From Candidatus Velamenicoccus archaeovorus (GTDB lineage: Bacteria; Omnitrophota; Gorgyraeia; Velamenicoccales; Velamenicoccaceae), in assembly GCF_004102945.1 (NCBI RefSeq), contig NZ_CP019384.1, positions 1,740,001 through 1,772,000 of the forward strand: a stretch of 32,000 nucleotides of DNA, read 5' to 3'. A program made the position numbers and the translations under genes. How positions within the stretch are numbered: position 1 is the first letter of the stretch; each line of letters opens with the position of its first letter. Shown here in pieces: positions 8,414 through 32,000 of this stretch. Under the pieces are notes generated by a model. The model saw only the letters and a list, made by a program, of their open reading frames with translations. It was not told the DNA's origin and searched no databases.

Positions 8414-8450
8414 TAATGAGACTTTAAGGCCAGACCTTAAAGTCTCATTA
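8414..8450. repeat. REP-like 37-bp perfect palindrome, copy 1
   Basis: The sequence is TAATGAGACTTTAAGG-CCAGA-CCTTAAAGTCTCATTA (16-bp stem, 5-nt loop). Its last three bases are the pyrB stop codon (TAA on the minus strand). Confidence 0.85.
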
Positions 8451-10108: not shown

Positions 10109-10146
10109 TTTCCCGATATAATCCTCGACATAATCATGGATTATGC

Positions 10147-10620: not shown

Positions 10621-10622
10621 TC

Positions 10623-10653
10623 AAAAAAACACCCGCGTCTTTGGGGCGCGGGT
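10623..10653 (-). terminator. rho-independent terminator of the glycosyltransferase/rsmI/glmS transcription unit
   Basis: The minus strand reads ACCCGCG-CCCCAAAGA-CGCGGGT followed by GTTTTTTT. Confidence 0.8.
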
Positions 10654-10791
10654 TCTCAAATTATCCTGAATATAATGCGTCATGATTCATCTCATCCTTG
10701 CCGGTTTCTCTGAACCGGCTTAAAGGCATTTCAAAAAATATAACACGCTTTAGCCGCACTGTCAAGACGATTTTCCCGCCCCCCCCTCGTC

Positions 10792-12372: not shown

Positions 12373-13028
12373 CAGAACACGACCACAAATTCACCTTTTG
12401 GCCTCGACCGCCGACGCAGCTGGTCCGCAACGCAACCGGCATCGCCGCGCAGCACCTCTTCAAATTTCTTCGTGATCTCGCGGACAACGGCAATGGGCCT
12501 CTCCCCAAGGACCTCGCGCATATCTTCGAGCGCAGACAGGATGCGGTGCGGAGATTCATAAGCAACGACGGTTGCCTTGAGGACTGCCAATTCCTTGAGC
12601 CGCTTCTTGCGGGCGGCGGATTTGACGGGCAAGAAACCCTCAAAGAAGAAGCGGTTGGCTGGAAATCCGCTGGCGGAAAGGGCGCTAATCAGGGCCGTCG
12701 GCCCCGGGATGGGTGTTACAGGGATGTTTGCGTCCAGGGCGGAGCGGATAAGGTTGAATCCTGGATCGCTGATGCCGGGCGTGCCGGCATCAGAGACAAG
12801 GGCGACCGCCTTGCCCTCCCGCAGCAACCCCATGAGATGCTCGCCGCGGACGATCTTGTTATATTCATAATAGCTGCATAAGGGTTTCTTGATGCCGTAG
12901 GCTTCGCAAAGGATCTTCGTGCGACGGGTATCTTCGCAGGCGATCAGGTCGACGGACTTTAACACCTCGACGGCGCGGTAAGTGATGTCGCCCAAATTGC
13001 CTATAGGTGTCGAAACAATATACAACAT
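12372..13028 (-). CDS. rsmI: 16S rRNA (cytidine1402-2'-O)-methyltransferase
   Basis: 218 aa. The N-terminus MLYIVSTPIGNLGDITYRAVEVLKSVDLIACEDTRRT is canonical for RsmI. Confidence 0.92.
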   Translation of the reverse strand: MLYIVSTPIGNLGDITYRAVEVLKSVDLIACEDTRRTKILCEAYGIKKPLCSYYEYNKIVRGEHLMGLLREGKAVALVSDAGTPGISDPGFNLIRSALDANIPVTPIPGPTALISALSASGFPANRFFFEGFLPVKSAARKKRLKELAVLKATVVAYESPHRILSALEDMREVLGERPIAVVREITKKFEEVLRGDAGCVADQLRRRSRPKGEFVVVF

Positions 13029-16304: not shown

Positions 16305-16450
16305 GATCCCCTCCACTCTCTCTCAGAATGGTTCCGAAGAAATTAACCGCGTTTATAGAAAGCAAAGGCCCCGTTAAAACATGGATACGAGATCCTTGTC
16401 TCTAACGGGGCGCATCGCTCTGGGACAGTTTAGGCTCGTGTCCGGGAGTA

Positions 16451-16739
16451 GTCCAAGCCTATCTATGGTCTTCGGAGATTTTGGAAGAGCGGATTTTAGC
16501 CGCATGCAAGGCGCGACGACGATGGCGTACCCGCTGTGGTACGTCGAGGAGGAGCAACGCAGCAGGCGGTCAAAAGACGCCTTCCCCTTAGTTAGAAACC
16601 AAGGGGCCGGCCGCTTTTGGGCTGCGACTGCGTCGTTCGTCCTTGGCGTAGCGCTTTGGCTACGCCAGCGTCCTCTCTCCTTGTCTCGCTCCAAAATCGT
16701 CACGGCCAAAACTCCGATGAACCATAGATAGGCTTGGAC
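16451..16739. mobile_element. foldback / MITE-like element, copy 2 (289 bp, intergenic)
   Basis: It has perfect 19-bp terminal inverted repeats: GTCCAAGCCTATCTATGGT at 16451..16469, with the reverse complement at 16721..16739. The core of about 250 bp is homologous to 2538..2801 and in the same orientation. It lacks the roughly 20-nt mini-hairpin of copy 1. Confidence 0.75.
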
Positions 16740-16809
16740 AGCAGCCCTCTTTGCAATGAGCTATCGCCCGCAGGAAGTAACGCGGTCTGAGTCTCATAAC
16801 AAACTCCTT

Positions 16810-16949
16810 TCGCAGAAAGCGAAACACCTGCGCCATTCCGATAAGCGCAGGGTGTCGCAGAAAGCGAAACACCTGCGCCATTCTCCGCCACAGGGCGGAC
16901 GCTGGCGCCATTCCATAAGCGCCAGGCACGATAAGCGCGGGGTGTCGCA
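16810..16949. repeat. 45-nt hairpin unit repeated in tandem, with the second copy carrying a 45-nt nested hairpin insertion in its loop
   Basis: Unit 1 (16810..16854) is TCGCAGAAAGCGAAACACCTGCGC-CATTCCGATAA-GCGCAGGGTG. Unit 2 (16855..16949) is the same sequence, interrupted after CATTC by TCCGCCACAGGGCGGACGCTGGCGCCATTCCATAAGCGCCAGGCA. That insert itself contains the stem CTGGCGC/GCGCCAG with the loop CATTCCATAA. Confidence 0.65.
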
Positions 16950-17155
16950 ATGGGTTGTATGCATCTAGGCATAGATTATTATATCCGACAAAAATTGTCA
17001 AGTATTTTAAATGAGCGTGTGACTTATGGAGCCCAGTGAACATAAGTCACTGCGCGAATTAAACCCAGCACTAATTTTACCGATCTATTTGCCATACCAA
17101 TCTCTTCTCTTTTTTCTTTGGACCTCTCTAGGTAAAATTGGTGCTGGGTAAGCTC

Positions 17156-17200
17156 GAGCATATAACTTATGGAGGCGTTATGCCTCCATAAGTTATGCTC
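17156..17200 (-). terminator. long hairpin immediately 3' of the lipoprotein gene (putative terminator)
   Basis: The arm GAGCATA(TA)ACTTATGGAGGC and the arm GCCTCCATAAGTTATGCTC flank a 4-nt loop. The hairpin begins 4 nt after the stop. There is no clear U-tract. Confidence 0.4.
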
Positions 17201-17204
17201 TCGC

Positions 17205-18131: not shown

Positions 18132-18166
18132 AATGAGACTTTAAGGCCAGACCTGTTTGTCTCATT
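18131..18166. repeat. REP-like palindrome, copy 3 (right arm degenerate)
   Basis: The sequence is TAATGAGACTTTAAGG-CCAGA-CCTGTTTGTCTCATT. It overlaps the TGA stop (18162..18164) of the 272-aa gene. Confidence 0.7.
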
Positions 18167-18980
18167 TCTTCTCTTGCTTCAGGCGCTGCTCGATATCGGA
18201 AAGGTCGGACTTCTTCTCCTCTTCCCCCTGCCACTGTTCGCCTTTTTCGGGCGCCAGGGGTTCCGGCTGCATATCCTGCGAAGGGGCCTTGAAATCTTCC
18301 GTAAGATTCGACATCGTCTTGATCTGCCTCAGCCAGATGACGAAAAAGATCAATCCCAGGATGCCGAGGAAAGCCACGACGCCGACGATCAGTTTCCACG
18401 TCAGCATGGGCGAGAACCCCTTGGCTTCAACCATCAATGTCTTGGCGGACTGGAGGTCGGTCTTGACCTCGTCCAGCAACTTCAGGTTTTCCCGGTAATC
18501 GGAAATGTAGCCCCCCGGGCTGGAGTTCACGACGGTCTGCGTACGTTCAATATGGTCCAGTTTTTGGAGGATGCTTTCTTTCAAATACTTGGCCCGTTCG
18601 CGATAGTCCGTGTTTTCCAAAATCTTGGCGACCTTGTCCACTTCCGTCCTGATCGAAGAAAGCTCTTCGGCAGGAATCTTCCAGACGTCCTCCATCTCGA
18701 TCTCTACGAGGACGGACTCTCTCGGCGCCAAATCAAAATCCTTATAAACATAATAGGCGGACTCTTTGGGATCGTAAGCGATATTCAAATCCCCCATGTC
18801 CACGATATTCTCCGGCTTGACCTCCTTGGGCAGATAGGATTTGAAAGGGACTTTTCTGGATTGGGTCTCTGAAGGATTAACGACGGCGGCCCGCACGACG
18901 ATATTGGCCATGGCATCGAATGCCACAGCCAGATTTAACAATAAAAAAACCACAGCTATGCCGTATCTTAAAGCTTTCAT
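18162..18980 (-). CDS. hypothetical bitopic protein (N-terminal signal peptide, coiled-coil middle, C-terminal TM helix, acidic tail)
   Basis: 272 aa. It has the signal-like MKALRYGIAVVFLLLNLAVAFDAMA and a TM segment WKLIVGVVAFLGILGLIFFVIW near the C-terminus, followed by an E/K/Q-rich tail. No family was recognised. It lies directly downstream of the giant ORF with no terminator between them. Confidence 0.75.
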   Translation of the reverse strand: MKALRYGIAVVFLLLNLAVAFDAMANIVVRAAVVNPSETQSRKVPFKSYLPKEVKPENIVDMGDLNIAYDPKESAYYVYKDFDLAPRESVLVEIEMEDVWKIPAEELSSIRTEVDKVAKILENTDYRERAKYLKESILQKLDHIERTQTVVNSSPGGYISDYRENLKLLDEVKTDLQSAKTLMVEAKGFSPMLTWKLIVGVVAFLGILGLIFFVIWLRQIKTMSNLTEDFKAPSQDMQPEPLAPEKGEQWQGEEEKKSDLSDIEQRLKQEKK

Positions 18981-19354: not shown

Positions 19355-22300
19355 TCATGAGTACTCATACCACGTCTGCACGACAGGCTCTTCTTTGGCG
19401 ACGTTCTCAACCATCTTCTGATTCAAAAGCATGAGGGCCTTGAGCTCCTGGGTCTTGTTGCGGAGGTAATCGATGTTCTGGGCGCCCTTCTCGGAGACTT
19501 CGTAGAGCCTCTCGATATTCTGCATGTCGGTGGACGTGCTCATCTTGTGGATCTTGTCGCTCATGTCCTGGAGGACCCTGTGCACGGTCTCCATCTGCTT
19601 GCTTGCCGAAAGGATCGCTTCGGAACCGCCCTTGACGCCCGCCAATACCTCAGAGGCCTTCTGGATATTCTGCTCGACGACATGGAATGCCGCGGAAAAC
19701 GCCTCCACCTTCGACTGCATGTCTTTGATCGGCGAGACGCTGCCCAAGACCGCCGAAAGGTCGCTGGCGACGCTCTCGAGATCGTCCATCCTGACGGTCA
19801 GCGTCAGCGCATCCAGGGTCCCATAGCTGCTTTCAGAGCAGACGATGGTAAAGTCGCCTGTGCCCCAGCCGAGGACGAACGTGAGGTCGTATTCATATAT
19901 CCCTGTCGCGCCGATCTCCATCATCGCGCCCTTGCTGACCCGCTGGACGTTATTGGCGTCATAGACATCGATGACGGGAGACAAGCCGGAATACGTCCTG
20001 TACCTGATCATCAAATCCTGGCCCGAACGGACGGTGTTCTCCCGGTTGAGGATCTCGGATTTCATGGCGGTTTCCGTCAGGGTCTTGGCTTCGTCGATCG
20101 ACGTATCCAGCTTCTTCTCCGTGGCCGCCACCGTGCTGGTGGTGTGCGCCTTGATGGCCTCCTCACTGGAGGAGATCTTGTCTTTCAAGACCCCCTCTGT
20201 CTTGGCCAAGCCGGTGCCCACCGCCTGTTCTATCTTTTCGACGGAATCCGCCAGCTGCGTTGCCGTCTGGGTGAAGAATTCATACTGCAGTTTTTCGCTG
20301 CCGACATCGATGTTCGCCGTCGACGTATAAGCCACGTCATTATAGAGGATCGTCAGGGTCGCCGGATACACCTTGCCCGACTGGAAATCGGTGTTGGCGT
20401 AAATCGGGAAGACGTACATGCCGCTGTCATTGACCGTGGTGATGAGTTCCTTCCTGAGCGTCGCGCCGTCGGACTCATAGATGGTGAAGGTCGCCGCGCC
20501 CATCTGTGCCCGCTCCTCGGCCCTGGTGCCGACCAATTTACCTTTTCTTTGCAGGGAACCGACGGCGCTCAAGGAATCGTCCGCCGGGGCGTAACTATAC
20601 GTCGCAATGGCCTCCCAACTGACCTGCGCCGAAGCCGTGCTTTCCATGTAGAGCGTGACCACATAAGGATCAGTCCCTGTCTTGGGCGCCGTCCAGCTGA
20701 CGCTGTTGTCGATAAAGCCGTCTTTCTTGAAGAAGGTCGTGTAGGTCCCGTACGGATACTGCGCCGTCCGCGTGACGGGAGACGTCAGCTCGTAACCGGT
20801 GCTCCAGGCGGTGGCCGGCTCTTCGGCGCTGAGTTCCGAGAGGTGCTGGAAGGTATCAAAGTCCAGGACGTTGAATTTCACCGAAGCATAGATGATGTTA
20901 AAGGCCTCCTCGCTCATGTCGTTGACCGTCGTGTCGTCCTGGTTGGAAACGCGCACCTTGACCGTACTGGACTTTATGTCCGGCAGCGTCCACGTATAGG
21001 AATTGCTGTTGGTGAGGCCGGCGACGATGGTCGTCCAGTTCAGGCCGCCGTCCGTCGTATAGTCGAGATTCACCTTCGGGATGTAGCCGCGGGTCGACCA
21101 CGTAATGGCCTGGGGCGATTTTGCCACCCAGTTTTCCCCGCCGTTGGGGGTGATCACGGTGAAGCCGCCGCGGATCCTGAACGTCCCGTCCGTGGTGTCC
21201 GTAATCAGCGTCCGGTTGCCGTCGGTGATGCGCAATCTCAATGTCGTGCCCGTCAGCGTAGAATCGGGGATATTCCAAACGAATTTGCCGCTGTTCGGCA
21301 CGCCGCTGGCGATGATCTGGTGCGTCGCAAAGTTGTCCAGGGAGATGTCGATGATCAGGTTATTGGAGATGGACAGACCTGTCCATGTCCAGGTGACGTC
21401 TGTCGTGTCTCCCAGGACGTAAACCTCGCCCGTGCCCGTCGGAGTCATGATCGTGATGGTCGGCAAGGGGTCGATGGTGAAGGACTTGTCCGAGATATCG
21501 TAAGTCGCCGGCCGCGTGATGTCCCTGATCCTGAAGATGGCGTTCGACGTCACCGTGACCTTGTCATCCTTTATCTCCCAGAGATAGGCCCCGCTGTTCG
21601 TCACGGTCGCCAAAGAAACGAACGTCCCCTCGGCACCGCCGCTGCAAGAAACCTCCAGCGACAGGGAATCGGACACGGCCCCTTCGCTGGTCCAGGTCAC
21701 GGGCGCCTTATCGCTGATGGCCCAGATCTCTCCGCCATTGGGGCTGGTGATGGTGATCTTCGGCGGGGCGATCGTGAAGACATCGTCGGAGACATCCGTC
21801 GTCGTCGGACGGGAAATATCCGTGATCCTCACCAAATATGTCTTGGTCCCGTCGCCTCCTCCGAGAACGTCATCGGGGACCTTCCAGACATACCCGCCGG
21901 TATTGGCCACGCCAGCGGCGATGGTCTTCCAGGTCGCGCCGACATCGTTGGAATATTCCAGCGTCAGGTTGTTGGAGATGACGCCGCCGTTGTCGTGCCA
22001 TGTGATGTTCTGGTTGGTGCCCACGCGCCAGATCTCCGAGCCGTTGGGCTTGTCGATGGTGATCACCGGCGTAGGCAGGATGCTGAACGTGGCGTCCGAT
22101 TTGTCGTTGACCATCAACGGCCTGCTGTTATCGGTGATCCTGACCCTCGCTGTGGCCGAGATATCATTCACCACCGTCCAGCTGTAGGTCCCGCCCTCCC
22201 CGGAATTAGGAACGTTGTCGGCGATGAGGATGCCGTCGGTGACAAAATTGTCCTTGGAATATTCGATCTTGAGGCTGTTGCCCACGCTTCCCGTGTTCGT

Positions 22301-25300
22301 CCAGGTGATGTTCTCGGCGTCACCGACGGTGAAGAGATCCCCGCCGTTGGGCCGCGTGACCTTGAGGATCGGGTAAGCGATGGTGAAGAAATTGTCCGAT
22401 TCGTCGTGGATGGCCAGCCAGTTGCTGTCGGTGACCCTGACCTTGACCGAAGAAGAATAATCGTCGGGGATGCCGTCGCCGGTCGCCCCCCAGCCGTAAG
22501 AACCGAGGAAAGAACCGTCTTCCTGGAGCTCGCCCTTGGACACCCCTGTGGCGATGGTATGGAAATCGCTGGTGAAGTTGTCCTTGGAATATTCGATCTT
22601 GAGGTTGTTGGAGATGTCGCCGACGCTCCTGAAGGTGATGACCTTGTCTTTGGTGCCGATAGGCCAGCTCTCCCCGCCGTTGGGGGTCAAAACGCGGACA
22701 TACGGCAGGACGATCTTGAAGTTTTGGTCGGAGGTATCCACCGTTGCCGGCCTGGAGGCATCATAGATCTTGACAAGGCAGGTATTGGAAATCGTGCTGG
22801 GCACCAGCCACATATAGGAGCCGGAGTTGGCGGATCCCGACGGCAAGTTCGTATCCAGCCAGCTCGTGCCGCCGTCTGCGGAATACCGGATATTGATGTT
22901 GTCCCTCACGGCCCCCACGTCATAACCTTCGCTGGTCCACTTGATCTCCTTGACAAGGCCCGCGACCCACTCTTCGGTGCCGTTGTTGGGCGACACCACT
23001 GTGATCGTCGGCGCTTTGATCGTAAAAGGATTATTCGACGTGTCCGTGACCGTGGTACGCTGGGCGTCCGTGATCCGGACGCGCACCGTGCTGGAGAGCA
23101 CGTCCGCCACCTTCCAGGTGTAAGTGCCGGTGTTGGCCTGGCCGCTCTTGATCGTATTCCATGTCGCGCCGTCCGTAGAATATTCCAACAGCAAGCTATC
23201 GGGATTGACATACCCCCTGCTCGTCCAGGTAACATTGTAATTGCCGGTGGCAAACCAACTCTCCCCGCCGTTAGGGGTGATCACGGTCACGGACGGAATA
23301 GTGATGGTGAACACCGCGTCGGAAACGTCTGAAATCTGGGTGTCGCTCGCATCTTCGACCTTGACCAAGCACTGGCTGCTTTCTGCATCCGGTATCTCCC
23401 AAGGATAATCGCCGTCGTTGACCTGCTGGCTGTTGATCTCTGTCCAGGTAACGCCGTTATCGTCCGAATAAAGAAGCCTGATGGCCTGATAGTCGCTGCC
23501 TCCCGACTGCAATTTGGCGCCCCAGCTCTTCCATTTGATATTGAATGTTTCGCCGATGACCAGGTTTTCGGTGCCGTTGGGCGCCAAGACTTTGATGGCC
23601 GGATATCCCAAGATCTGGACAGCGGGAGAGGTCGCCGTGACCTGCGGATTCGAGTTATCGGTGATCTTTATCAAGACGCTGTCTCCGACGGCATCCTGAG
23701 GCACCATCCAGTCATAATACTTGTTTTCGTTGGAAACGCCGGTGGCGATGGTCGTCCACGTGCTCCCGTCCTTGGAGTATTCCAAGAGCAGGTCGTTGCT
23801 GATGGTCCCGTCGGTGATCCAGATGACTCTGAAATTCTCTCCGGCCACCAGGACATCCGAAGAGACAGGCGCGGTGAAGGTGACGGTCGGAGCGGCGATG
23901 GTGAAGACGCCGGACAAACCCTGGATGATCAACTGCGTATCGCGCGGCTGGCCGTTGCGGTCCGCCGGCAGGGCCGATTCTTTGACGCGGATCTTCATCG
24001 AATCCGAAAACGCGCTCGGCACGGTCCAGTTGTAGGAACCGTTGATGTCGTCGTTGGGGTTGCTCCCCACGGGCGTGCCGATGCTGACGCCGGCCGCAAT
24101 GGCATGCACATCTGAAATAAAATCGTCGTTGGAATATTCAATATCCACCGTCGGGCAGAACCAATTCTGGTTGGCCGTCCAGGAGAGGGTCTTCGTCAAC
24201 CCTTCTTTCCACACGTCGCCCTGCACGGGCGAATTGACCGTGATCTTGGGCGCCGGAACGATGGCAAACAGCTGGTTCGATGTGTCCGTGATGTTCTCGT
24301 TCAACGGATCATAGATCCTCAGGCTGACGGTGTCCGACGGCGTATTGGCGACCGTCCACGTATATATGGCCGGGCTGGGCGGCCTGTTGTTTGACACCAG
24401 ACTCCAGGTCGTCCCGCCGTTGATGGAATACTTGATCGTCAGGTCGTGCGCCAGCGTGCCCGAGGCAAACCATGTGATGCCGTGCGGTTTGCCGACCTCC
24501 CAGATCTCTCCGCCGTTGGGAGAGCTCACCTCCAGGGACAATATCCTGAAGCTGGCATCCGACTCATCGTAGACAAGAGGGAAATCTTCGGAAACGATCT
24601 TGATCTTTGCGGTCTGGCTGGGATTGTCCGGCACAAGCCAACTGTAAGTGCCTGTGTTGTTAAGATTGCTGACGATCGTGTTGGGATAGGTCGCGCCGTT
24701 GTCCGTCGAATATTGTATCTTCACCTTTCCCGTGTTGCCGTCGATCGCCTGCGCGTTCCAGGTGATCGTGGCCGTCGAGCCGGAATTTATGGTCTCACCG
24801 CCGTTGGGCGCCGTCACCGTGATGAAAGACTTGATGTATTCGACGCCCGCTTTCGTCAAGATCGGCGTATCCTGCCCCACGGAACTCAGGAGGACCCTAT
24901 ACTGGAACCACTGGTCATCCTCGGCGTCCCGGTTCAAAACATTGATGAGACTGCCGGCGGGCGCCACATAATATGTCGGATCCGTGGTCGTCGTGATGGT
25001 GACCTTGTCGAGCTCCGGTGTATAGACCCCGTCGCTGGAACTGAGATACACCCGGTACCAGAATTCTCCCTTGGGGAAAGCAGTCACGTAATCAACCAGG
25101 TGGGCCCTGATCTCCACCGAGGTATTGGCCTGGTTTAAGCCGGCGCTCACAAGAGTCCACTTGGTGCCGTCATGCCAATACCAGTTATAACCGTCGGAGG
25201 AGACTTGGTACTTGATGCTCGTATTCGTCGGCGTCGTGATCACGTCGGTGAAATCCACGAGGTTATTGTCATAGAAAACACCCAAAATCGGCTGGATCGT

Positions 25301-28300
25301 CGGATTGGTCTTGTAATAAACCTCCATGCCCGTGGGGTTGGCTGTCTCGCTGTAGACAAAACCTACGTAAGGAGCAACGGTGGCGCTCTTGTAAACCATG
25401 AACTTGTCGATAAAAATAGCGTCCTTGGCCGACCTGACCGTCGGTTTGATGGACAGGTTCGGGCCTGCCACAAAGCCGGCATTGTACGTCAGCTTGTCGC
25501 CGCTGGACAATTCAAAAACGACCTTGCCGCTCGTCGGAGGCGTCCCGCCCGGATTGTGCGGGGTCCACGTCATTTTTTCCGTGTTCCACATCGTGGCCGT
25601 ATAAGCCATGCGGATGGATTCCCAGGAAGTATAACCGTCTCCGGACTCGTCGTAGAAATAACCGTTGTTCCACATCAAGACGTTGTAGCCTGCCAGGTAG
25701 CTGGATGTCCCCTGGCTCGTCGCATATTTGGCGTTGGGGTCGCAGATGCCCACGAAATGCTGGCCGGTCTTGTTGGCTGTCTGCCAGATAACCTGCGAGG
25801 TGATATTATAATTAGGGGCCATATTTGTCTTTGCCTGCAAATAACCGTTATGCGCCACCTTGACCGCGGTGCGGCCGCCCTGGCTGGTGTCCGTCAAAAT
25901 AAAGCGCCAGATCAGATTGTTCAGGGAAATGCCGCTGTTGTTGGAGAAGGTCGCGCTGACCGACCGGGTCGTGCCGCCGACAAGGGGCGCTTCAGGCAAA
26001 GTCGGGTCCGTTGTCATCTCAAAACCGACCTGGATATTGAAAAGCGCGGCAGGCGCAGAGTCGCTGCTAAGGATAACGTTGTTATTTGAATTCAATATCT
26101 GCCACGACCAGTAATAAAGGTGCCCTTGTATCAAGCCTGCGGGCATGGTGATGGATGCATTATTGATGGTCGTCGTGGCGCCATGGGGAAGATCGAATGT
26201 GGTGCTGTCAACCTGGTCAAAAACAGCCCCTGAATCTACGTCGGTGAATTTGAAACGGAGCTTGAGGCCCTGCTGATCGTATGTCTCATTGTTGGTAAAA
26301 GTCCCTCCCAGGGTGCTGATGACCTGGCCCGGCACAACGCTCTTGACCATGAACGGGCCGGCGGTCATGCTCACCAAGCCGTAATACAAGGTAAACGGCT
26401 GGACCACATCCTGCGCCTGCACCAAAGCGCCGTTGGCCCAACGCAGCTCCCAATTCCAGTCATACGTCCGGCCGGAGATGATCCCCGAAGGGATGACCAC
26501 GTCAGTGGATGGTGTCGTCGTGCCCGTGGCGATGGTCAAGGTCGAGCTGTCCATGCCGAAGATGCTCGACACGGTCACCAGGTTGCAATACTGCGTGTCC
26601 CATTTGTCCAGCCCGCCGTCGAAACTGTCGAAGAATTCAAAGACATTGTCTCCGTTGCTCTGGCTGACGGCCGCGGGATTGCCGTAATACATATAAACGG
26701 TCTGTTTGGCCGTATTGGAAAGCGTGGGAAGCTTGATCCAGAAGCGCGCCTTCTGTTCCGTGGTGCTGAAGGTATCCAGGTAATAAGGCAGGAGCGTCGT
26801 ATCGTCGCTGTCGACAAAACGCACGTCGGACCCGTCGCTCTTGACATGGCTCCAGAAATCCTTATGGCTCTTGTCTATGTCCACAGACACCTGGAAATCG
26901 GCCAATGCCGCGTCATTGGCCGTGTTGTCGATGTTCAGCGTCTCCTTATACTGCCACGCGGAAAGCTGGGGATTGCCGCTGGTTGCCGCGGTCTCTTCCG
27001 CCAACATGTACGTGGACATGCGGTAATTGAATTCCGCGATCTTGAACACCGGCGTGATGGCTTCCGAGTAGCTGTTATAGGTGTATAAAGCGAACCTCTT
27101 GTCGCCCACCACCTGCAGGTTCCTCCAAGTCGCGCCGGGGTCCACGGCTGTCGAGCTCCCCTTGCTGCCCAGGCTGACGTAACTCGGAGAAGGGCTGATG
27201 TCGCCGGTGATCGTAACGCTGGTGCCGCCGTCTTCAAGGGCCACCAGCCTTAAATATCTCGTCGCCGCGGTATTGATGTAATATTCCTTGCCTACGCCCA
27301 CCAGGGTATCGGCGCTCTGGTAGATCTGGCCTTTGCCGCCGCCCGAATCGTCTGCCACGACGCATATCGGCTTGTCCGCGGAAACATAGGTCCGCATGCT
27401 CAAAGCGCCGGTCCCGCCGTTGGGCAGGTGTTTATAACTCTGCCCTTTGTTCAATGTCCCGCTATAGTCGCCGGTTGTGCTGTCCAGGTTGTCAATGATG
27501 ATATTGGTGCCGTCTTCATAGGCCGTCAGCGTAATGATGGAATCCGGACAGTAAAAATAATACTCCTGCATGTCAGGGGAGCGGATCTGTTCCGAAGCCT
27601 CACCGTGATTGATCAACCCTGCCATGACGGTGATGGGCTTGGTGGCCTCGATATGCCAGACTTCGCCGCGGGAATCCACCCGGTTCCAGCCAAACCAGAA
27701 ATTGCCCTTGTCGAGCGCGATGCTCTGGGTGTCGTCTCCCAGGCCGTAGTCGGTGATCGTTACCTGGGTATCGTCGTTATACGCGGTAATGATCACATCG
27801 CCGTCGTAGTTGTTCGACGGCATCCACAGCCACAGGTCATTGCCGCAAACCGTGTAAAAATCGTCGTCGTAGTAGGAAGCCGGCTCAATGGCAGAGGTAA
27901 AGATGGTGATCGGCTTCTGGGAGGTAACGTGGTAGACCGTCAGGTCGGTATCGTCATATCTTTGTTTTTCTCCGACAGCGGTAAAATCGCGGTATGACGA
28001 CGCAATGACCTGGCCTGAAGAATCCAGCTTCTCGATGGTGACACGGTTAGGCGCGTCGGTGGTGACGATGTCGAAGAAGGCGAACATGAAGGCATAAAAG
28101 TCCGTCCCGATCAAAGACTCGGCCAATGTAGGATCAGACTCTGTGGTGGCAGTTGACTTGCCGTAAAGGATGTAGATGGTCTTGGCCGCGCCCAGGGGAA
28201 TGGTCGGCACCGTGACCCAGCAGGTGGCGGTCTTTTTGTTCTTACTGAAACCGACAACGCGGTATTTCAAAGGCGTCTTTCCGTCGGAATCCACAAAACG

Positions 28301-31300
28301 GATGTCAGAACCATCGCTGGAAATATGGTTCCAGAAATCGATGTTGGCCGAGGGTACCTCGACCCTGATGGTGCAATCGGTATAGGCCGTGGCCCCTGAC
28401 GTGTTGTCTATGATGACCTTCTGACGATAGAGATAATCCTGCAGGACCTTGGAGAGCTTGGCTGTGCCGTTGCTGACCACGACCTCCGACGTATTGGCAT
28501 ATTCCTCCTTGTTGGTGAATTCATAGGGGATCTGCTGGATGCCGGCAGGCCCATACCACGGCCCCCATGTCCCCGGCTCTCCATTGTCGTCCGGCGCAGT
28601 ATGCACCTGGAAACGCACGTCGGTGCCGGCAGGCAGTGTCGCGGTCCAAGAGATATTCCTCAAACGGTTGGTGGCATAGGTCGTGTTGTACGGCGAAGAA
28701 ACCAATTCCTGGCTCAAGGGATACTTGGTCCAGCCGATGGTGACTTTATCCATTAGGGGAACCTGAGTCAAATCATAACAGAAAAATCTGATGTAGTATT
28801 GCAGGTATTGATCGCCGTCGTTGACTCCGGCATAAGCGGAAAGGTCGGCGTTCTTGACCGTCTTGTCCACATAAGACCAGGCCAGGGCGTCCGAGAGGTC
28901 GAATTTTTTGCCGGTGCGCACTTTAATGTCTATCTGGCCCAGGCCGTTGTTGACCCAGCTCACATTGGCGAGACTGGCATTGTTGCCGATCTCCTTGATG
29001 TCCGAAATATATATGCCGGATGAGAACAGGAGGTATTTCATCAAAGACGAGGTGCCGTAGCCGCTGGAGAGATAGATATAATCCCCGGTGCCCGGATACA
29101 TGGCGGCCGCCTGGCCGTTGAGGACAAAAGGCAGGTCCGGCCGCGTGTCCCAGGTATTCGTCGAAATGCAATAACGGTAGAAATAATTCGTCCCGTAGGA
29201 AAGATCGTAATTATAGGAAACAAAGTAATAGATATAGTCTCCAAAACCCGGGCTGAAAAGAACACCCCCCATGCTGGGCAGGGGCAGAGGTGCAAGCGAT
29301 TCCCAGGTGTTGTAGGCCGAGTCGCCGTCTGTCGTCGTGGTATCGGTGGTGTCCGCGTTATAACGCCAAAAAGCGACGGAGCCGCCGCCGGCCGTGGCAT
29401 ACAGATATTTATCCGTTCCCGGATTGATCAGGTTCGAACCGCGGGAAACAACGGTGGGCGTGGTCGCATATTCTTTCCAATTGTTGCCGGCGATGGAGTA
29501 GCGCCAGAACGTTATGGTTGAGCCGCCCCTCATGGCATAAAGATAGCCGTCGCGATACGCCAGGGTCTGGCCTGTGGAAAATGTGGCCGGCGGCACAGCC
29601 AGGTTCGTCCACAGGTCTGTGCTGACCGAATAGGCCCAGATATCGTAATAGCCGGTGCCCCTGGTCACATAGATATAATCGCCGGAACCCGGATAAACGG
29701 CGCGGGCATCGGTTGTAACCGACGACGGCGGCGGATTCAACGTATACCAGACGGAATTGGTGATATTGTATTTGTAAAATTCGTTGGACCCTCCGCGCAT
29801 ATAGAAGATCTCTTCTCCGGAAGGCATGGCGCAGATCTGGGAACCGTAGGAATTACTCGCCGGGAACTGGATGGGCTCATCCCACCTGTTTGTGGAGATG
29901 GAATACCTGTTGAAATTCACACCCAAGTTACCGTGGTTGACACCCAGATAAAAATACAAAAGGTCCCCTGTGCCCGGATAAAAACCGCCAGAGGTGCCGC
30001 CGACGGAGATAGAGGCGTCTGTCAGGATCGTCCATGTATTGGTGCTCAAAGAGTATTTGGCAAAATCCCTGCCGCTCCCTTTCAAGCAATAAATGAAATC
30101 GCCTGAGCCCGGATAAACCAGGCTGCCGTAATCCGAGATGGCCCATGGCGCATCAGCCAAGTAGCCCCACGTCTCGTCGTCCAGATTGAACTTGGTGAAT
30201 TTTGTGGTGCCGGACTGTTTAAGGACATAGATACCTTTATAAGAACCGCTTGAGATGATGCACATGCCGTTGCCTTCCGAATACGCCGACTCAAGCATAT
30301 TGGGCAGGGTCGTCCAGGAACCGCCGTAGGCATCGTCGTTGAATTTCAGGAAGATCGAGGAATTATAATAGCCGGGACAGACATAGATGCCGCTGGCGTC
30401 AGCCACCATCCTCGCGCTCCAGAAGAACATGTAAGGAGAAGACGCCAATTGCGTCCAGGTGCCGGTTGCCGTATTATACTTCCAGAAATTCCTCGACATA
30501 TTGCCTTCGGAAACATAGATGTAGTCGCCTGTGCCTGGATAAACCGCCCTATGCCCCGTACCAGAAGTGACAAAAGGCAGTTTTATCAGGTTGACCCATT
30601 TGTTCTGGGTGAGGGAATACTTCCAGGCATAGTTCGTGCGGTAGTTCATGAACAAATAAACATAATCCCCTTTTTTGACGACACTGCCGAAGTTGAGGCG
30701 CGATGTGGCATAAGGGGCGTTGACAATCTCATTCTTCCACTGGCCTGTGCTGAAAACATAGGTCTCGACTCCAGAGGCATATTGTGTACCGATGTGATAG
30801 AGATTTGTGTCGCTGGCGCAGGCCGCTATCTGCGTGTATTGAAAAATGGGCGCGTGAAGACTCTGCCAAGTATTGGTAGCAATATCGTATTTGGCAAAAC
30901 CCGTATAATAGAGGCTACCGTCATGGCCGTTTAGATAATAGATAGCATTCTCGCTAGAAGAATAAACAAACTTTCCGCCATAGCCTGGATACATATCCGG
31001 CAAATTTGCTTTTTGGGTCCAAGTATCGGTTGAGATTTGATAAGTCATAAATACTGTCCTAGAATTGCTGCGCAAGAAATAGATATAATCGCCCGAGCCA
31101 GGATAGACCGAGCACGCGCCATAGTAAAAATTACCAAAAGGACAGAGACTGATACTTTGCCAGGTATCGTTTTGCGGTTTATAGCGATAAAGATTATTAG
31201 TATAGGCTCCCGTGTCTTGATTGTAGCCGCCTGTGGCATAAACAAAATTCCCTGCGACCACAAGGGTGCCGCCCCAATAAGCCTTTTGCGGAAGAGGCGC

Positions 31301-32000
31301 CAGTTGTTCCCAGGCTTTGGTCGTCAGGTTATACCTGCTGAATCCATTCTGGTAATATCCCTGCATGCAATAAATATAGGTATCTCCCGGTTTATAAGCC
31401 AAGCCCCCTCCTACATAAATACCTGACGTATTGCCGGCGAAGGTGGCATCAGAAAGCCTTTCCCATTGATAAGCCACAGCTGTATTAGACGAAGAAAATG
31501 GAGTAAAGGTCAAATAATACTTATAGAAATATTTATAGCCGTTGCCTGGGATGTAGTAAATGGCATTTTCCGAAGCCACATAAACCGCATCTGCGCCCCA
31601 ATAACCGCTGGAACGGGGATATGACTCTTCGCGCCATTTTTTGGTCGCTGGATAATAGCGATAAGTCGAGCTATAGCTGTGATTGCTTAAAAGCCTGAGC
31701 TCTGTGCCGCCCCCATCAGGGTCATAAAGATACATCCGGCTGTAGATGGTAAAAGGCAAAGCAGGCATTTCGATGTCTTTGGAAAGCGTGGAGGTATAAT
31801 AAGAGCTTTCCCAAGTGTCCGAAGAAATATAATACCTTGCAAAATACCTGCTGCCGCCGTTCCAGGCGTAGAGATAATCCCCTGTCCCGGGCCACACCAC
31901 ATCCGAATACCATGACAAGGCAAACGGGCAATTCTGCAAGCTGACCCACGCGTTGGAAGAAGCATTCACGTCGAATTTGGCAAACGAGGTCGAACCGCCG
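19355..32000 (-). CDS. giant multidomain secreted/surface protein (more than 4,214 aa, N-terminus outside the window)
   Basis: This is a single uninterrupted frame. The track start at 31969 is only the first in-window GTG. The frame stays open to base 32000 (..GGSTSFAKFD|VNASSNAW..), and those residues continue the blade repeat. See the findings for the domain map. Confidence 0.9.
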   Translation of the reverse strand, partial: GGSTSFAKFDVNASSNAWVSLQNCPFALSWYSDVVWPGTGDYLYAWNGGSRYFARYYISSDTWESSYYTSTLSKDIEMPALPFTIYSRMYLYDPDGGGTELRLLSNHSYSSTYRYYPATKKWREESYPRSSGYWGADAVYVASENAIYYIPGNGYKYFYKYYLTFTPFSSSNTAVAYQWERLSDATFAGNTSGIYVGGGLAYKPGDTYIYCMQGYYQNGFSRYNLTTKAWEQLAPLPQKAYWGGTLVVAGNFVYATGGYNQDTGAYTNNLYRYKPQNDTWQSISLCPFGNFYYGACSVYPGSGDYIYFLRSNSRTVFMTYQISTDTWTQKANLPDMYPGYGGKFVYSSSENAIYYLNGHDGSLYYTGFAKYDIATNTWQSLHAPIFQYTQIAACASDTNLYHIGTQYASGVETYVFSTGQWKNEIVNAPYATSRLNFGSVVKKGDYVYLFMNYRTNYAWKYSLTQNKWVNLIKLPFVTSGTGHRAVYPGTGDYIYVSEGNMSRNFWKYNTATGTWTQLASSPYMFFWSARMVADASGIYVCPGYYNSSIFLKFNDDAYGGSWTTLPNMLESAYSEGNGMCIISSGSYKGIYVLKQSGTTKFTKFNLDDETWGYLADAPWAISDYGSLVYPGSGDFIYCLKGSGRDFAKYSLSTNTWTILTDASISVGGTSGGFYPGTGDLLYFYLGVNHGNLGVNFNRYSISTNRWDEPIQFPASNSYGSQICAMPSGEEIFYMRGGSNEFYKYNITNSVWYTLNPPPSSVTTDARAVYPGSGDYIYVTRGTGYYDIWAYSVSTDLWTNLAVPPATFSTGQTLAYRDGYLYAMRGGSTITFWRYSIAGNNWKEYATTPTVVSRGSNLINPGTDKYLYATAGGGSVAFWRYNADTTDTTTTDGDSAYNTWESLAPLPLPSMGGVLFSPGFGDYIYYFVSYNYDLSYGTNYFYRYCISTNTWDTRPDLPFVLNGQAAAMYPGTGDYIYLSSGYGTSSLMKYLLFSSGIYISDIKEIGNNASLANVSWVNNGLGQIDIKVRTGKKFDLSDALAWSYVDKTVKNADLSAYAGVNDGDQYLQYYIRFFCYDLTQVPLMDKVTIGWTKYPLSQELVSSPYNTTYATNRLRNISWTATLPAGTDVRFQVHTAPDDNGEPGTWGPWYGPAGIQQIPYEFTNKEEYANTSEVVVSNGTAKLSKVLQDYLYRQKVIIDNTSGATAYTDCTIRVEVPSANIDFWNHISSDGSDIRFVDSDGKTPLKYRVVGFSKNKKTATCWVTVPTIPLGAAKTIYILYGKSTATTESDPTLAESLIGTDFYAFMFAFFDIVTTDAPNRVTIEKLDSSGQVIASSYRDFTAVGEKQRYDDTDLTVYHVTSQKPITIFTSAIEPASYYDDDFYTVCGNDLWLWMPSNNYDGDVIITAYNDDTQVTITDYGLGDDTQSIALDKGNFWFGWNRVDSRGEVWHIEATKPITVMAGLINHGEASEQIRSPDMQEYYFYCPDSIITLTAYEDGTNIIIDNLDSTTGDYSGTLNKGQSYKHLPNGGTGALSMRTYVSADKPICVVADDSGGGKGQIYQSADTLVGVGKEYYINTAATRYLRLVALEDGGTSVTITGDISPSPSYVSLGSKGSSTAVDPGATWRNLQVVGDKRFALYTYNSYSEAITPVFKIAEFNYRMSTYMLAEETAATSGNPQLSAWQYKETLNIDNTANDAALADFQVSVDIDKSHKDFWSHVKSDGSDVRFVDSDDTTLLPYYLDTFSTTEQKARFWIKLPTLSNTAKQTVYMYYGNPAAVSQSNGDNVFEFFDSFDGGLDKWDTQYCNLVTVSSIFGMDSSTLTIATGTTTPSTDVVIPSGIISGRTYDWNWELRWANGALVQAQDVVQPFTLYYGLVSMTAGPFMVKSVVPGQVISTLGGTFTNNETYDQQGLKLRFKFTDVDSGAVFDQVDSTTFDLPHGATTTINNASITMPAGLIQGHLYYWSWQILNSNNNVILSSDSAPAALFNIQVGFEMTTDPTLPEAPLVGGTTRSVSATFSNNSGISLNNLIWRFILTDTSQGGRTAVKVAHNGYLQAKTNMAPNYNITSQVIWQTANKTGQHFVGICDPNAKYATSQGTSSYLAGYNVLMWNNGYFYDESGDGYTSWESIRMAYTATMWNTEKMTWTPHNPGGTPPTSGKVVFELSSGDKLTYNAGFVAGPNLSIKPTVRSAKDAIFIDKFMVYKSATVAPYVGFVYSETANPTGMEVYYKTNPTIQPILGVFYDNNLVDFTDVITTPTNTSIKYQVSSDGYNWYWHDGTKWTLVSAGLNQANTSVEIRAHLVDYVTAFPKGEFWYRVYLSSSDGVYTPELDKVTITTTTDPTYYVAPAGSLINVLNRDAEDDQWFQYRVLLSSVGQDTPILTKAGVEYIKSFITVTAPNGGETINSGSTATITWNAQAIDGNTGKVKIQYSTDNGATYPNTIVSNLNNTGTYSWLVPDNPSQTAKIKIVSEDFPLVYDESDASFRILSLEVSSPNGGEIWEVGKPHGITWFASGTLAHDLTIKYSINGGTTWSLVSNNRPPSPAIYTWTVANTPSDTVSLRIYDPLNENITDTSNQLFAIVPAPKITVNSPVQGDVWKEGLTKTLSWTANQNWFCPTVDIEYSNDDFISDVHAIAAGVSIGTPVGSNPNDDINGSYNWTVPSAFSDSMKIRVKESALPADRNGQPRDTQLIIQGLSGVFTIAAPTVTFTAPVSSDVLVAGENFRVIWITDGTISNDLLLEYSKDGSTWTTIATGVSNENKYYDWMVPQDAVGDSVLIKITDNSNPQVTATSPAVQILGYPAIKVLAPNGTENLVIGETFNIKWKSWGAKLQSGGSDYQAIRLLYSDDNGVTWTEINSQQVNDGDYPWEIPDAESSQCLVKVEDASDTQISDVSDAVFTITIPSVTVITPNGGESWFATGNYNVTWTSRGYVNPDSLLLEYSTDGATWNTIKSGQANTGTYTWKVADVLSSTVRVRITDAQRTTVTDTSNNPFTIKAPTITVVSPNNGTEEWVAGLVKEIKWTSEGYDVGAVRDNINIRYSADGGTSWLDTNLPSGSANSGSYMWLVPSTISNTCLVKIYDASRPATVDTSDQNFKIVLPYVRVLTPNGGESWPIGTKDKVITFRSVGDISNNLKIEYSKDNFTSDFHTIATGVSKGELQEDGSFLGSYGWGATGDGIPDDYSSSVKVRVTDSNWLAIHDESDNFFTIAYPILKVTRPNGGDLFTVGDAENITWTNTGSVGNSLKIEYSKDNFVTDGILIADNVPNSGEGGTYSWTVVNDISATARVRITDNSRPLMVNDKSDATFSILPTPVITIDKPNGSEIWRVGTNQNITWHDNGGVISNNLTLEYSNDVGATWKTIAAGVANTGGYVWKVPDDVLGGGDGTKTYLVRITDISRPTTTDVSDDVFTIAPPKITITSPNGGEIWAISDKAPVTWTSEGAVSDSLSLEVSCSGGAEGTFVSLATVTNSGAYLWEIKDDKVTVTSNAIFRIRDITRPATYDISDKSFTIDPLPTITIMTPTGTGEVYVLGDTTDVTWTWTGLSISNNLIIDISLDNFATHQIIASGVPNSGKFVWNIPDSTLTGTTLRLRITDGNRTLITDTTDGTFRIRGGFTVITPNGGENWVAKSPQAITWSTRGYIPKVNLDYTTDGGLNWTTIVAGLTNSNSYTWTLPDIKSSTVKVRVSNQDDTTVNDMSEEAFNIIYASVKFNVLDFDTFQHLSELSAEEPATAWSTGYELTSPVTRTAQYPYGTYTTFFKKDGFIDNSVSWTAPKTGTDPYVVTLYMESTASAQVSWEAIATYSYAPADDSLSAVGSLQRKGKLVGTRAEERAQMGAATFTIYESDGATLRKELITTVNDSGMYVFPIYANTDFQSGKVYPATLTILYNDVAYTSTANIDVGSEKLQYEFFTQTATQLADSVEKIEQAVGTGLAKTEGVLKDKISSSEEAIKAHTTSTVAATEKKLDTSIDEAKTLTETAMKSEILNRENTVRSGQDLMIRYRTYSGLSPVIDVYDANNVQRVSKGAMMEIGATGIYEYDLTFVLGWGTGDFTIVCSESSYGTLDALTLTVRMDDLESVASDLSAVLGSVSPIKDMQSKVEAFSAAFHVVEQNIQKASEVLAGVKGGSEAILSASKQMETVHRVLQDMSDKIHKMSTSTDMQNIERLYEVSEKGAQNIDYLRNKTQELKALMLLNQKMVENVAKEEPVVQTWYEYS
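20894..24826 (-). repeat. about 13 tandem Ig-like beta-sandwich repeats (~100 aa each) within the giant ORF
   Basis: The recurrent pattern is [IV]T.(P)NGGE.W..G....ITW...G......I.YS.D.G.TW..IA..V.N.G.Y.W.VP...S....VRI.D......D.SD..F.I. It resembles the Kre9/KNH-like N-terminal Ig-like domain class (by eye). Confidence 0.75.
26650..26950 (-). other. DUF2341-like module 2 of the giant ORF, followed by FEFFDSFDG and a LamG/ConA-like region
   Basis: The sequence is ...IDNTANDAALADFQVSVDIDKSHKDFWSHVKSDGSDVRFVDSDDTTLLPYYLDTFSTTEQKARFWIKLPTLSNTAKQTVYMYYGNP... Confidence 0.55.
28140..28445 (-). other. DUF2341-like module 1 of the giant ORF
   Basis: The sequence is ...IIDNTSGATAYTDCTIRVEVPSANIDFWNHISSDGSDIRFVDSDGKTPLKYRVVGFSKNKKTATCWVTVPTIPLGAAKTIYILYGKS... 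Confidence 0.55.
29039..32000 (-). repeat. about 20 Kelch-like beta-propeller blades (~48 aa each) at the N-terminal end of the giant ORF
   Basis: The recurring signature is YPG(S/T)GDYIY...G(G/S)......F.(K/R)Y.....(T/N)W..L...P. Examples are VYPGSGDYIYFL, VYPGTGDYIYVSEG, VYPGSGDFIYCLKGSG, FYPGTGDLLYFYLG, VYPGSGDYIYVTRGTG and MYPGTGDYIYLSSGYG. Confidence 0.7.

Follow-up and report, generated by a model that had tools for sequence, protein, structure and literature searches.

A chimeric 4,548-residue protein and its adjacent membrane partner in Candidatus Velamenicoccus archaeovorus: a putative anchored surface fibre of Omnitrophota

The giant gene, its product and its expression

The DNA analysed in this study (hereafter, the window) is a stretch of 32,000 nt from the genome of Candidatus Velamenicoccus archaeovorus LiM (CP019384.1). 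The subject of the analysis is a giant gene on its minus strand, BU251_08370 (product QAT17732), together with the small gene that follows it. The C-terminal 4,214 codons and the stop of the giant gene occupy 19355..31999. The stop lies at 19355-19357, and translation gave no other stop through base 31999. The original prediction, made from the DNA letters, had described a single minus-strand open reading frame (ORF) cut only by the window edge. This was borne out by the translation and by a library sequence of 4,548 residues (P0233), which showed 0 mismatches to the window frame over 4,214 residues and added 334 N-terminal residues from beyond the edge. The Omnitrophota lineage, offered as a guess, was also right, as eight tested window proteins were exact matches to strain LiM. 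The locus tag and accession of the giant gene were assigned from the gene order between QAT17731 and QAT17733, the accessions rising with the window coordinate, and the next gene beyond it is BU251_08375. Directly downstream, at 18162..18980 on the minus strand, lies the gene of a 272-residue protein (BU251_08365, QAT17731; exact match), here called the partner. No convincing terminator was found between the two genes.

The product of BU251_08370 has a mature mass of about 492 kDa, an acidic isoelectric point (pI) of 4.65 and a Thr/Ser/Gly-rich composition. The recovery of the true N-terminus, which had been proposed as a check, made it possible to look for an export signal in the added residues. 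The full-length N-terminus reads ...RVMRPGVLGLVLAGMFVLGQAVLCINMSFA-ADQ, and the sole 19-residue segment with a Kyte–Doolittle value above 1.6 in all 4,548 residues falls at residues 37-60, followed by SFA-AD, with cleavage predicted after residue 64. We read it as a Sec-type signal whose n-region is possibly mis-called as overly long. A signal peptide of the classic form was present at the start of all seven complete family members. The C-terminus ends ...VVQTWYEYS and is without a transmembrane segment. No catalytic domain was found among the domain matches.

The domain order was obtained with Pfam, PDB searches and self-built hidden Markov models (HMMs); residues are counted from the window edge unless stated otherwise, and all coordinates of the gene are on the minus strand. 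Residues 1-994 (29018..31999) consist of Kelch-type beta-propeller blades. Kelch_6 matched with an E-value of 6.3e-23 and 80.4 bits against a Pfam gathering threshold of 25.3, and Kelch_1 scored 29.8 against 20.1, with other Kelch models also matching. PDB Kelch domains matched with E-values down to 1e-15. The self-built iterated HMM detected 19 blades in the window part, in agreement with the predicted 20 or so at residues 1 to about 985, and 22 in the full length. The latter span full-length residues 182 to about 1,350 with a spacing of 42-63 residues and two double-length gaps. Because of the two double gaps, the total is put at about 24 blades, that is, roughly four propellers.

The Kelch region is followed by a beta-rich region without family assignment (residues 995-1228, 28316..29017), which is conserved in collinear orthologues and 61-65% identical to that at locus L016. 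No Pfam or PDB match was obtained in it, and the two beta-sandwich-like modules predicted at about 985-1170 were not confirmed. Two copies of DUF2341 (PF10102) come next, at residues 1229-1301 (28097..28315) and 1722-1802 (26594..26836). The Pfam match had an E-value of 1.5e-43 and 147.6 bits against a cutoff of 23.4, the self-built HMM detected both copies, and the domain was found in 8 of the 8 orthologues scanned. The presence of two DUF2341 modules had been correctly foreseen, but in mid-protein the earlier residue numbers fell short by about 50. Between the two copies lie four diverged units of about 90 residues (1302-1640, 27080..28096) ending in K(P/R)(I/F), with the motif at residues 1360, 1452, 1541 and 1632. 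Neighbouring units showed weak profile–profile similarity (hhalign, E 4e-4 to 9e-3). This is the best conserved part relative to L016, with 79% identity in the bin starting at residue 1351. The IgGFc-binding label given to the four predicted repeats was not supported, as there was no Pfam match to PF17517.

For the region after the second DUF2341 copy (residues 1803-2397, 24809..26593), a lectin/LamG-like reading was not confirmed. No match to PF13385 or PF02210 was obtained for BU251_08370, and a PDB profile search with the middle region gave none. Laminin_G_3 was strong in the corresponding region of the relatives L028, L032 and L008. The PEGA-like domain of the original prediction was not recovered either (no Pfam match to PF08308). 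IgGFc_binding, PEGA and Laminin_G were absent from the Pfam matches at E<=0.01 with the whole protein and at E<=0.1 with the middle region. Residues 2398-3702 (20894..24808) are a tandem array of immunoglobulin (Ig)-like domains (Pfam Kre9_KNH, 1.6e-17). The self-built HMM resolved exactly 13 units, each with E<=1e-24, where about 13 had been predicted. Such an array would form a stalk of roughly 45-50 nm.

The remaining 512 residues form the tail, which was modelled by AlphaFold with 22 homologues at a mean predicted local distance difference test (pLDDT) score of 75.6 (model m780f500e73c0). The predicted order is two beta-sandwiches, a helix of about 80 residues, a third beta-sandwich, a low-confidence linker (tail residues 370-390) and a helical C-terminal module, with no barrel. 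The model agrees with the predicted alternating beta and helical tail ending ...VVQTWYEYS. From the model and from identity bins, the tail was divided into a part holding the three beta-sandwiches and the long helix (residues 3703-4060, 19820..20893) and a terminal helical module (residues 4061-4214, 19358..19819) with the near-invariant end ...NKTQELKA...VVQTWYEYS, the proposed docking site for the partner. The former is like type A and the latter is type B in the sense given below. SpiroCoCo and "FlgL-like" labels on the tail were rejected as coiled-coil noise far below the cutoffs. The partner was modelled at a pLDDT of 85 as a signal helix, a small beta-sandwich, a three-helix bundle, a transmembrane helix and a disordered charged tail. 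It has 82 homologues and no Pfam domain.

Known anchoring and secretion families were searched for in the giant protein. NCBIfam (whole protein and tail, E<=1) gave no sortase/LPXTG, PEP-CTERM, GlyGly-CTERM or type IX secretion system (T9SS) sorting signal, but weak coiled-coil models only. Pfam gave no match to Autotransporter, IAT_beta, HemolysinCabind, SecA_DEAD, PilY1/Neisseria_PilC, SLH or a known S-layer family domain, and no LysM element was found. Dockerin (PF00404) and TSP3 (PF18884) were absent among the Pfam matches at E<=0.01, which does not support placing the protein with the archaeovorin/dockerin type. The predicted absence of LPXTG, T9SS C-terminal, PEP-CTERM, autotransporter and RTX elements was thus upheld, no Pfam or NCBIfam model having matched. 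The view that the protein corresponds to no characterised adhesin or toxin family held for every anchoring or secretion family tested.

The reality of the gene was examined in other assemblies. In GCA_041890195.1 (locus L001), a 4,547-residue product is called for the giant gene, and this assembly differs from the window by 137 substitutions and 0 indels over 11,274 nt (98.8% nucleotide identity). Within the gene, 96 of the differing codons are synonymous and 24 are non-synonymous. Two metagenome contigs of the Joint Genome Institute (JGI) carry copies that are 93-98% identical; one of them, L006, showed 97.7% protein identity over 3,666 residues with the frame unbroken. Frameshifts and stops inside the ORF, which the original prediction had named as grounds for doubting it, were absent in these three assemblies, as were indels. 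Furthermore, no tandem repeats and no near-identical repeats were found in the gene at the DNA level. According to Lonsing et al. 2025, the closed LiM genome was confirmed with PacBio HiFi data (PMC12583861). The substitutions between LiM and GCA_041890195.1 were clustered: two bins of 250 codons held 33 and 37 of the 120 differing codons (window 28980-28250 and 23750-23000, codons about 1007-1250 and 2750-3000), while several other bins held 0-3. This pattern suggests small strain-level recombination patches within the giant gene.

Expression in metaproteomes, another check proposed at the outset, was looked up in Table S1 of the same study, of which about 245 rows were examined (PMC12583861). 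There, QAT17732 is listed with 80.1 transcripts per million (TPM) and, in three cell fractions, with relative intensity-based absolute quantification (riBAQ) values of 704.6, 100.3 and 398.0 parts per million (ppm). In the first fraction (10kS), 6 of the rows examined exceeded it. The partner QAT17731 had 490, 136 and 448 ppm, and the products of two small genes upstream had 424, 76 and 429 ppm and 659, 141 and 492 ppm (PMC12583861). In these rows, the giant protein, the partner, a 173-residue signal-peptide protein and a 95-residue protein with a transmembrane segment and a coiled coil are therefore near-equimolar in all three fractions. If the abundance-weighted mean protein is about 35 kDa, BU251_08370 is estimated from these values to make up about 1% of the total metaproteome mass. 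Accordingly, the gene is real and under selection, and its product is made in quantity; an artefact is excluded.

Just upstream of the giant gene come three genes that share one orientation (L006 6074-9359; LiM BU251_08375, _08380 and _08385). One encodes a paralogue-like protein of 726-789 residues with a hydrophobic signal-like N-terminal segment, a DUF2341 domain and an Ig-unit-like C-terminal stretch, the last recognised by eye. The other two encode the 95-residue and 173-residue proteins. A "204-aa" ORF upstream in L006 was rejected as a wrong-frame artefact of these two real genes. No homologues of the 95-residue and 173-residue genes were found in the other fetched loci, few of which include upstream sequence. 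The upstream products may be further parts of the same envelope complex. Farther upstream, L006 124-5685 holds a secretin (Secretin, Secretin_N, STN), a TPR protein, a histidine kinase with a LuxR-type response regulator, an IS200-like transposase and a helix-turn-helix protein. The secretin, 8 kb upstream of the giant gene, could bear on passage through the outer membrane, and the transposase on the arrival of the type A block described below.

A tail and partner family with two types, and the chimeric gene of LiM

A search with the tail returned 22 proteins at 37-61% identity. All the named ones were from Omnitrophota, and most were cut by contig ends. The C-terminus of the family, ...NK[TS]QELKA...[VI][TV]Q[TA]WYEY-x, is almost invariant. 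A genome scan with tail motifs gave 47 loci, nearly all in metagenome-assembled genomes (MAGs) of Omnitrophota, in which the tail-bearing ORFs encode 2,069-3,646 residues when complete and at least 3,822 when they extend beyond the 10-kb flank. Among the library proteins, those carrying the whole tail C-terminally ranged from about 2,060 to about 6,900 residues. The tail-profile count of 16,828 includes Ig-repeat columns and is not the size of the family, the usable measure being whole-profile matches at the C-terminus. A scan of the genome collection (without the LiM genome) using the N-terminus gave no match.

The synteny of the giant ORF and the 272-residue partner in related genomes, which had also been proposed for checking, was found to be widespread. 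In about 38 of the 47 loci, the tail gene is immediately followed by a homologue of the partner, and tblastn adds a few more. Each paralogue has its own partner, as seen in UBA6210 (L022 and L051) and in the second V. archaeovorus copy (L054). We propose that the family be defined by an N-terminal Sec signal, a tail with the C-terminal motif given above and a partner of about 220-300 residues directly downstream; BU251_08370 has all three. Elsewhere in the family, the domains include Laminin_G_3, GLEYA/PA14, Big_1 and BNR. The tail and the partner are thus proposed to be a conserved anchoring cassette across Omnitrophota that bears very different bodies.

Several single loci deserve mention. 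The second V. archaeovorus cassette (L054 194-14687; GCA_041890195.1, JBEEQD010000102.1) comprises a 3,180-residue giant gene and a 274-residue partner. This giant gene is of type B and intact, with 94% identity to L019, and over its last 60 residues the product closely resembles the window protein. The genes downstream of this cassette (response regulator, Phage_rep_O, MerR-like, large serine recombinase) suggest that it lies in the surroundings of a mobile element. In L003 (11-8396, type A; contig shared with L036), the giant gene is called as a 2,421-residue product and a separate 349-residue tail product, with 70 nt between the two. A frameshift or a sequencing error could account for this, as could a real split by which the tail becomes a polypeptide in its own right. 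On a contig assigned to Gammaproteobacteria, L047 (NZ_JAAEQH010000022.1, labelled Neptuniibacter sp. MAG) carries a tail-family gene and partner, and L048, a near-duplicate from the same study, is labelled "PVC group bacterium". The placement of L047 is most likely a binning error and not a family member outside Omnitrophota.

The family falls into two types. Type A comprises the Ig-containing members with Kelch, DUF2341 and LamG heads, and its gene order is giant gene, partner, Peptidase_MA_2, F-type ATPase and PilB-like ATPase/T2SSF in at least 15 loci. This neighbourhood matches the co-located "symbiotic" F-ATPase/type-4a-pilus loci that were described in Omnitrophota by Seymour et al. (PMC10066038). 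Type B comprises the members without Ig, Kelch, DUF2341 or LamG domains. These members gave only weak Big_1 and BNR matches, and their heads are mutually homologous (33-93% identity). Their order is giant gene, partner and glmS (8 loci), and in the syntenic type B loci tested, the genes of a lipoprotein, a rubrerythrin, rsmI, pyrR and pyrB come next, as in the window.

The neighbourhood in the window is accordingly of type B, the flanking proteins being 88-97% identical to those of L051 (UBA6210) and L014. However, the body of the window gene is of type A and is unrelated to the body at L051 and L014. Compared with the collinear type A orthologue L016, the identity was 57-79% in the head, 37-45% in the stalk (with one bin of 59%) and 37-50% in the tail. 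In bins of 40 residues, residues 3,560-4,040 shared 50-80% identity with the nearest type A tails and 8-35% with type B, residues 4,040-4,080 were equidistant from both, and residues 4,080-4,214 were 58-88% identical to type B, with type A at 18-30% over 4,080-4,160. At the nucleotide level, the identity to L051 climbs toward the stop (47, 61, 74 and 80%), as does that to L014. Within the coding sequence of the two genes that follow, the identity to L051 remains at 76-91%. Rate variation as the cause of this gradient was rejected, as the switch is sharp and reciprocal. The LiM gene is therefore a chimera, a type A body in a type B locus, with the switch at residues 4,040-4,080 or so (19760..19882). 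In the AlphaFold model, this zone coincides with the predicted linker that joins the third beta-sandwich to the terminal helical module.

The same chimeric arrangement was found in GCA_041890195.1. In addition, one JGI contig (42,424 bp) is both locus L005 and a member of the 90%-identity clusters of the proteins neighbouring the gene in the window. Because eight loci, including those of the closest relatives, hold a type B body beside glmS, it is by parsimony in the V. archaeovorus lineage that a type A body took the place of a type B one. The original prediction had considered that a lack of conservation in close relatives would speak against the ORF. The gene with its full architecture is kept in strain relatives at 97-99% identity and in distant Omnitrophota, but the closest other species (UBA6210 and L014) carry an unrelated body at the locus. 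The latter shows cassette replacement and not an artefact.

The agreement between the tail and the partner was then tabulated by locus. Each locus was classed by the closeness of its tail segments to loci with A-type or B-type partners, leave-one-out and reference-based. The terminal 135 residues agreed with the partner type in all 35 other loci and in the window (36/36). The preceding 195 residues disagreed with it in the window and in L038, L040 and L049. Since the 135-residue module agrees with the partner type in all the loci classed, the terminal helical module and the partner are never separated among them.

Proposed role and competing explanations

On this basis, BU251_08370 is proposed to be a partner-anchored surface fibre or adhesin with an exchangeable body, in an organism that is known as an epibiotic predator. 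We give this reading a probability of roughly 0.6. From the domain order, the N-terminal two thirds, with about 24 Kelch blades, two DUF2341 modules and the associated beta modules, would be the distal binding head, and the thirteen Ig-like domains would be the stalk. The terminal helical module of about 135 residues would dock onto the three-helix-bundle ectodomain of the cognate single-pass membrane partner, which would hold the fibre to the cell envelope. Recombination at the last domain boundary would have put a type A body at the glmS-side locus, with the resident terminal module still fitting the resident partner. The likely role would be attachment to prey or host cells, and exchange of the body would change the binding specificity.

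The docking model is drawn from the co-segregation of module and partner and from the near-equimolar abundance of the four adjacent gene products. The attachment-fibre reading is drawn from the export signal, the lack of a catalytic domain, the adhesin-type modules, the 13-unit Ig stalk, the high abundance, the link of type A to pilus loci and the exchange of bodies. From these, we infer the surface location, the physical docking, the adhesin role and a ligand.

Several observations weigh against this reading. The predicted topology of the partner (signal, ectodomain, transmembrane helix, positive-inside C-tail) suggests an inner-membrane protein, in which case a diderm cell must pass a 492-kDa fibre through its outer membrane. 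No type I (T1SS), type V (T5SS) or type IX secretion signal and no sortase signal was found in the protein, and an upstream secretin was seen only in L006. Fold searches with the tail (pdb, viral) returned generic beta-sandwich arrays at template modelling (TM) scores of about 0.15 or non-significant matches, and the fold search with the partner (pdb) gave no significant match to a solved structure. Furthermore, the co-segregation may come from genetic linkage instead of physical fit, as the module lies 0.1-0.4 kb from the partner gene. A coat protein would explain the high abundance no less well than a specific adhesin would. The enrichment in the large-cell over the free-cell fraction is modest (705 vs 398 ppm) and comes from a single dataset (PMC12583861).

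The main competitor is a structural coat or S-layer-like protein that, jointly with the partner and both small proteins encoded upstream, would build the "velamen" after which the organism is named. Such a role is compatible with an adhesin role, and we consider it unlikely but worth serious attention. An abundance of 705 ppm molar is very high for a 492-kDa protein, and the acidic pI, the Thr/Ser/Gly-rich composition and the near-equimolar neighbours would suit a coat, as would the description of LiM as a "coated coccus" (PMC10066038). However, the protein has no SLH or known S-layer domain, and its beads-on-a-string form with propellers at one end resembles a fibre and not a lattice former. 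Moreover, the literature ascribes the coat to a LiM ORF of 39,678 residues (PMC10066038), from which BU251_08370 is distinct, and whole-body exchange between loci is more typical of specificity determinants.

A type-IV-pilus tip adhesin, PilY1-like in function and presented on a pilus instead of by the partner, is a doubtful alternative. PilY1 has a beta-propeller, which recalls the Kelch array. In addition, type A cassettes of other genomes lie directly upstream of F-ATPase, PilB-like and T2SSF genes in at least 15 loci, there is the secretin 8 kb upstream in L006, and DUF2341 is annotated in type-IV-pilus-like systems, including large proteins of archaeal pilus loci (PMC4858521, PMC11809585). 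Against this, the protein had no PilY1/PilC Pfam match and no prepilin-type N-terminus, the signal being of Sec type. Its molar abundance equals that of the membrane partner and is far too high for a tip protein. The LiM gene also lies outside the pilus locus, no pilin genes were found in the 18 kb downstream, and the strictly conserved neighbour is the transmembrane partner and not a set of minor pilins.

Still less probable is a scaffold role in the periplasm or between the membranes, in which the partner would tether the protein to the inner membrane and the protein would not reach the surface at all. The partner topology and the lack of a recognised signal for outer-membrane translocation would fit such a scaffold. 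The family, however, carries lectin- and adhesin-type domains throughout, whole-body replacement between close relatives is ill-suited to a housekeeping periplasmic role, and the estimated length of stalk plus head would exceed the width of the periplasm. Finally, long repetitive genes mis-assemble easily, and the same record marks pyrB as a pseudogene. The chance that the long ORF or the A/B junction is a product of faulty assembly or annotation is nevertheless negligible, in view of the closed genome with PacBio HiFi confirmation per its authors (PMC12583861), three further independent assemblies with the same arrangement and no indels, the strong synonymous excess, the lack of near-identical DNA repeats in the gene and the peptides detected in published metaproteomes.

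Neighbouring features, known systems and significance

Three further features were observed in the window. Between the rubrerythrin-like and lipoprotein genes, a stretch of about 850 nt (16320-17200) holds no convincing ORF. The small GenBank ORF QAT17729 was placed there by gene order, and it is listed with a TPM of 2,618, the highest of the roughly 245 rows of Table S1 examined, and with no peptides (PMC12583861). The stretch gave no Rfam match and is poorly conserved in syntenic relatives. Two perfect repeats lie in it, one direct (29 nt, 16810-16838 and 16855-16883) and one inverted (19 nt, 16451-16469 and 16721-16739), along with a hairpin (17155-17203). The stretch is a candidate for an abundant, undescribed RNA.

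The pyrB gene (8448-9557) is listed by locus tag only (BU251_08315) in the protein list of CP019384.1, implying a pseudogene flag. In the window, its ORF is intact, with 369 residues and OTCace_N and OTCace domains; the peptide signal in the part of Table S1 examined is low, at 0.9, 0.26 and 8.7 ppm (PMC12583861). In addition, window 10000-13000 shows a composition shift, with GC down to 0.48 and AT skew up to +0.13 to +0.24. It overlies a 526-residue ORF (10792-12372, BU251_08330) that is named "Glycosyltransferase RgtA/B/C/D-like domain-containing" in UniRef and has no Pfam match. No other flanking gene is so poorly conserved in distant syntenic relatives; its product has 41-43% identity there, compared with 71-82% for its neighbours.

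Giant proteins of Omnitrophota have been studied by West-Roberts et al. 2023, Seymour et al. 2023 and Nielsen & Lui 2026. Like BU251_08370, they come from the same phylum or organism and are large, repeat-rich and poorly annotated, with prey attachment proposed. Type A cassettes and these giant ORFs are also alike in their frequent neighbouring genes of the type II secretion system and type IV pilus (10.1101/2023.11.21.568195; PMC10066038; 10.64898/2026.06.07.730766). However, the catalogued giant ORFs have many transmembrane helices, SecA-DEAD, dockerin/TSP3 or multi-enzyme content, whereas BU251_08370 has one hydrophobic segment and none of these. The thresholds for "giant" in this literature are >20 kb, at least 10,000 residues or at least 30,000 residues (PMC10066038; 10.64898/2026.06.07.730766; 10.1101/2023.11.21.568195). 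The original prediction had likened the gene to giant ORFs of this phylum; the phylum and the proposed attachment role agree, but 4,548 residues fall under those thresholds. The definition of West-Roberts et al. 2023 (>30,000 residues, many transmembrane regions, mostly a divergent SecA DEAD domain) does not describe the protein.

The nearest documented parallel is found in large proteins with DUF2341 modules, known from Patescibacteria and from archaeal type IV pilus loci (PMC11809585; PMC4858521). These exceed 4,000 residues and occur in ultrasmall, host-dependent prokaryotes. Adhesion and a type-IV-pilus-like link have been proposed for them, and in Omnitrophota, the link holds for the type A cassettes. 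They belong to other phyla, however, and BU251_08370 has no FhaB-type or autotransporter partner. A Kelch array, a 13-unit Ig stalk, a helical C-terminal module and a dedicated transmembrane partner are undescribed for these proteins.

The repeat-stalk adhesins (LPXTG-anchored ones of Gram-positive bacteria, RTX/T1SS ones such as LapA, and intimin/invasin) follow the same logic of head, Ig stalk and terminal anchor, and the weak Big_1/Invasin_D3 matches of type B members recall intimin/invasin. Unlike them, BU251_08370 appears to need a helical module and a dedicated partner for its anchoring. The "mosaic adhesive trimer" fibres of the predatory bacterium Bdellovibrio, reportedly described by Caulton and co-workers in 2024, are said to be trimeric coiled coils, from a few hundred residues long up to about 1,500. 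The LiM family is likened to them by function and not by sequence or fold, both having a conserved anchoring end and exchangeable binding ends. In contrast to these fibres, the variable part of the LiM family is a string of globular domains of 3,000-4,000 residues, and the anchor involves a separate membrane protein.

In the literature searched, no description was found of the conserved tail, the partner, the two-locus structure or the LiM chimera, with a mention in Kizina et al. 2022 being possible, and no report was found of Kelch proteins in Omnitrophota. A large surface-type protein in Omnitrophota is unsurprising; it is the cassette, the natural chimera and the strong expression in the only cultured representative that offer a tractable way into the study of how Omnitrophota attach to prey. 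We tentatively suggest, at rather less than even odds, that the terminal module and its cognate partner are a phylum-wide surface-protein anchoring system of Omnitrophota, not described before, on which multi-kilobase adhesin bodies are swapped across loci or lineages through recombination at one domain boundary, so that a predatory nanobacterium could switch its prey-binding specificity.

Prey attachment and recognition in Omnitrophota are poorly understood, and attention has been on proteins of >10,000 residues that are almost impossible to study. BU251_08370 is more tractable, as it comes from the only enrichment-cultured member of the phylum, belongs to the more abundant proteins of published proteomes and has family members in dozens of genomes. 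The candidate anchoring interface is also small, with about 135 residues and a 272-residue partner. If our reading is true, the LiM gene is a natural domain swap that maps the anchor interface and predicts which residues fit which partner. Moreover, if exchange of the body changes the specificity, the cassettes would mark prey range across the phylum.

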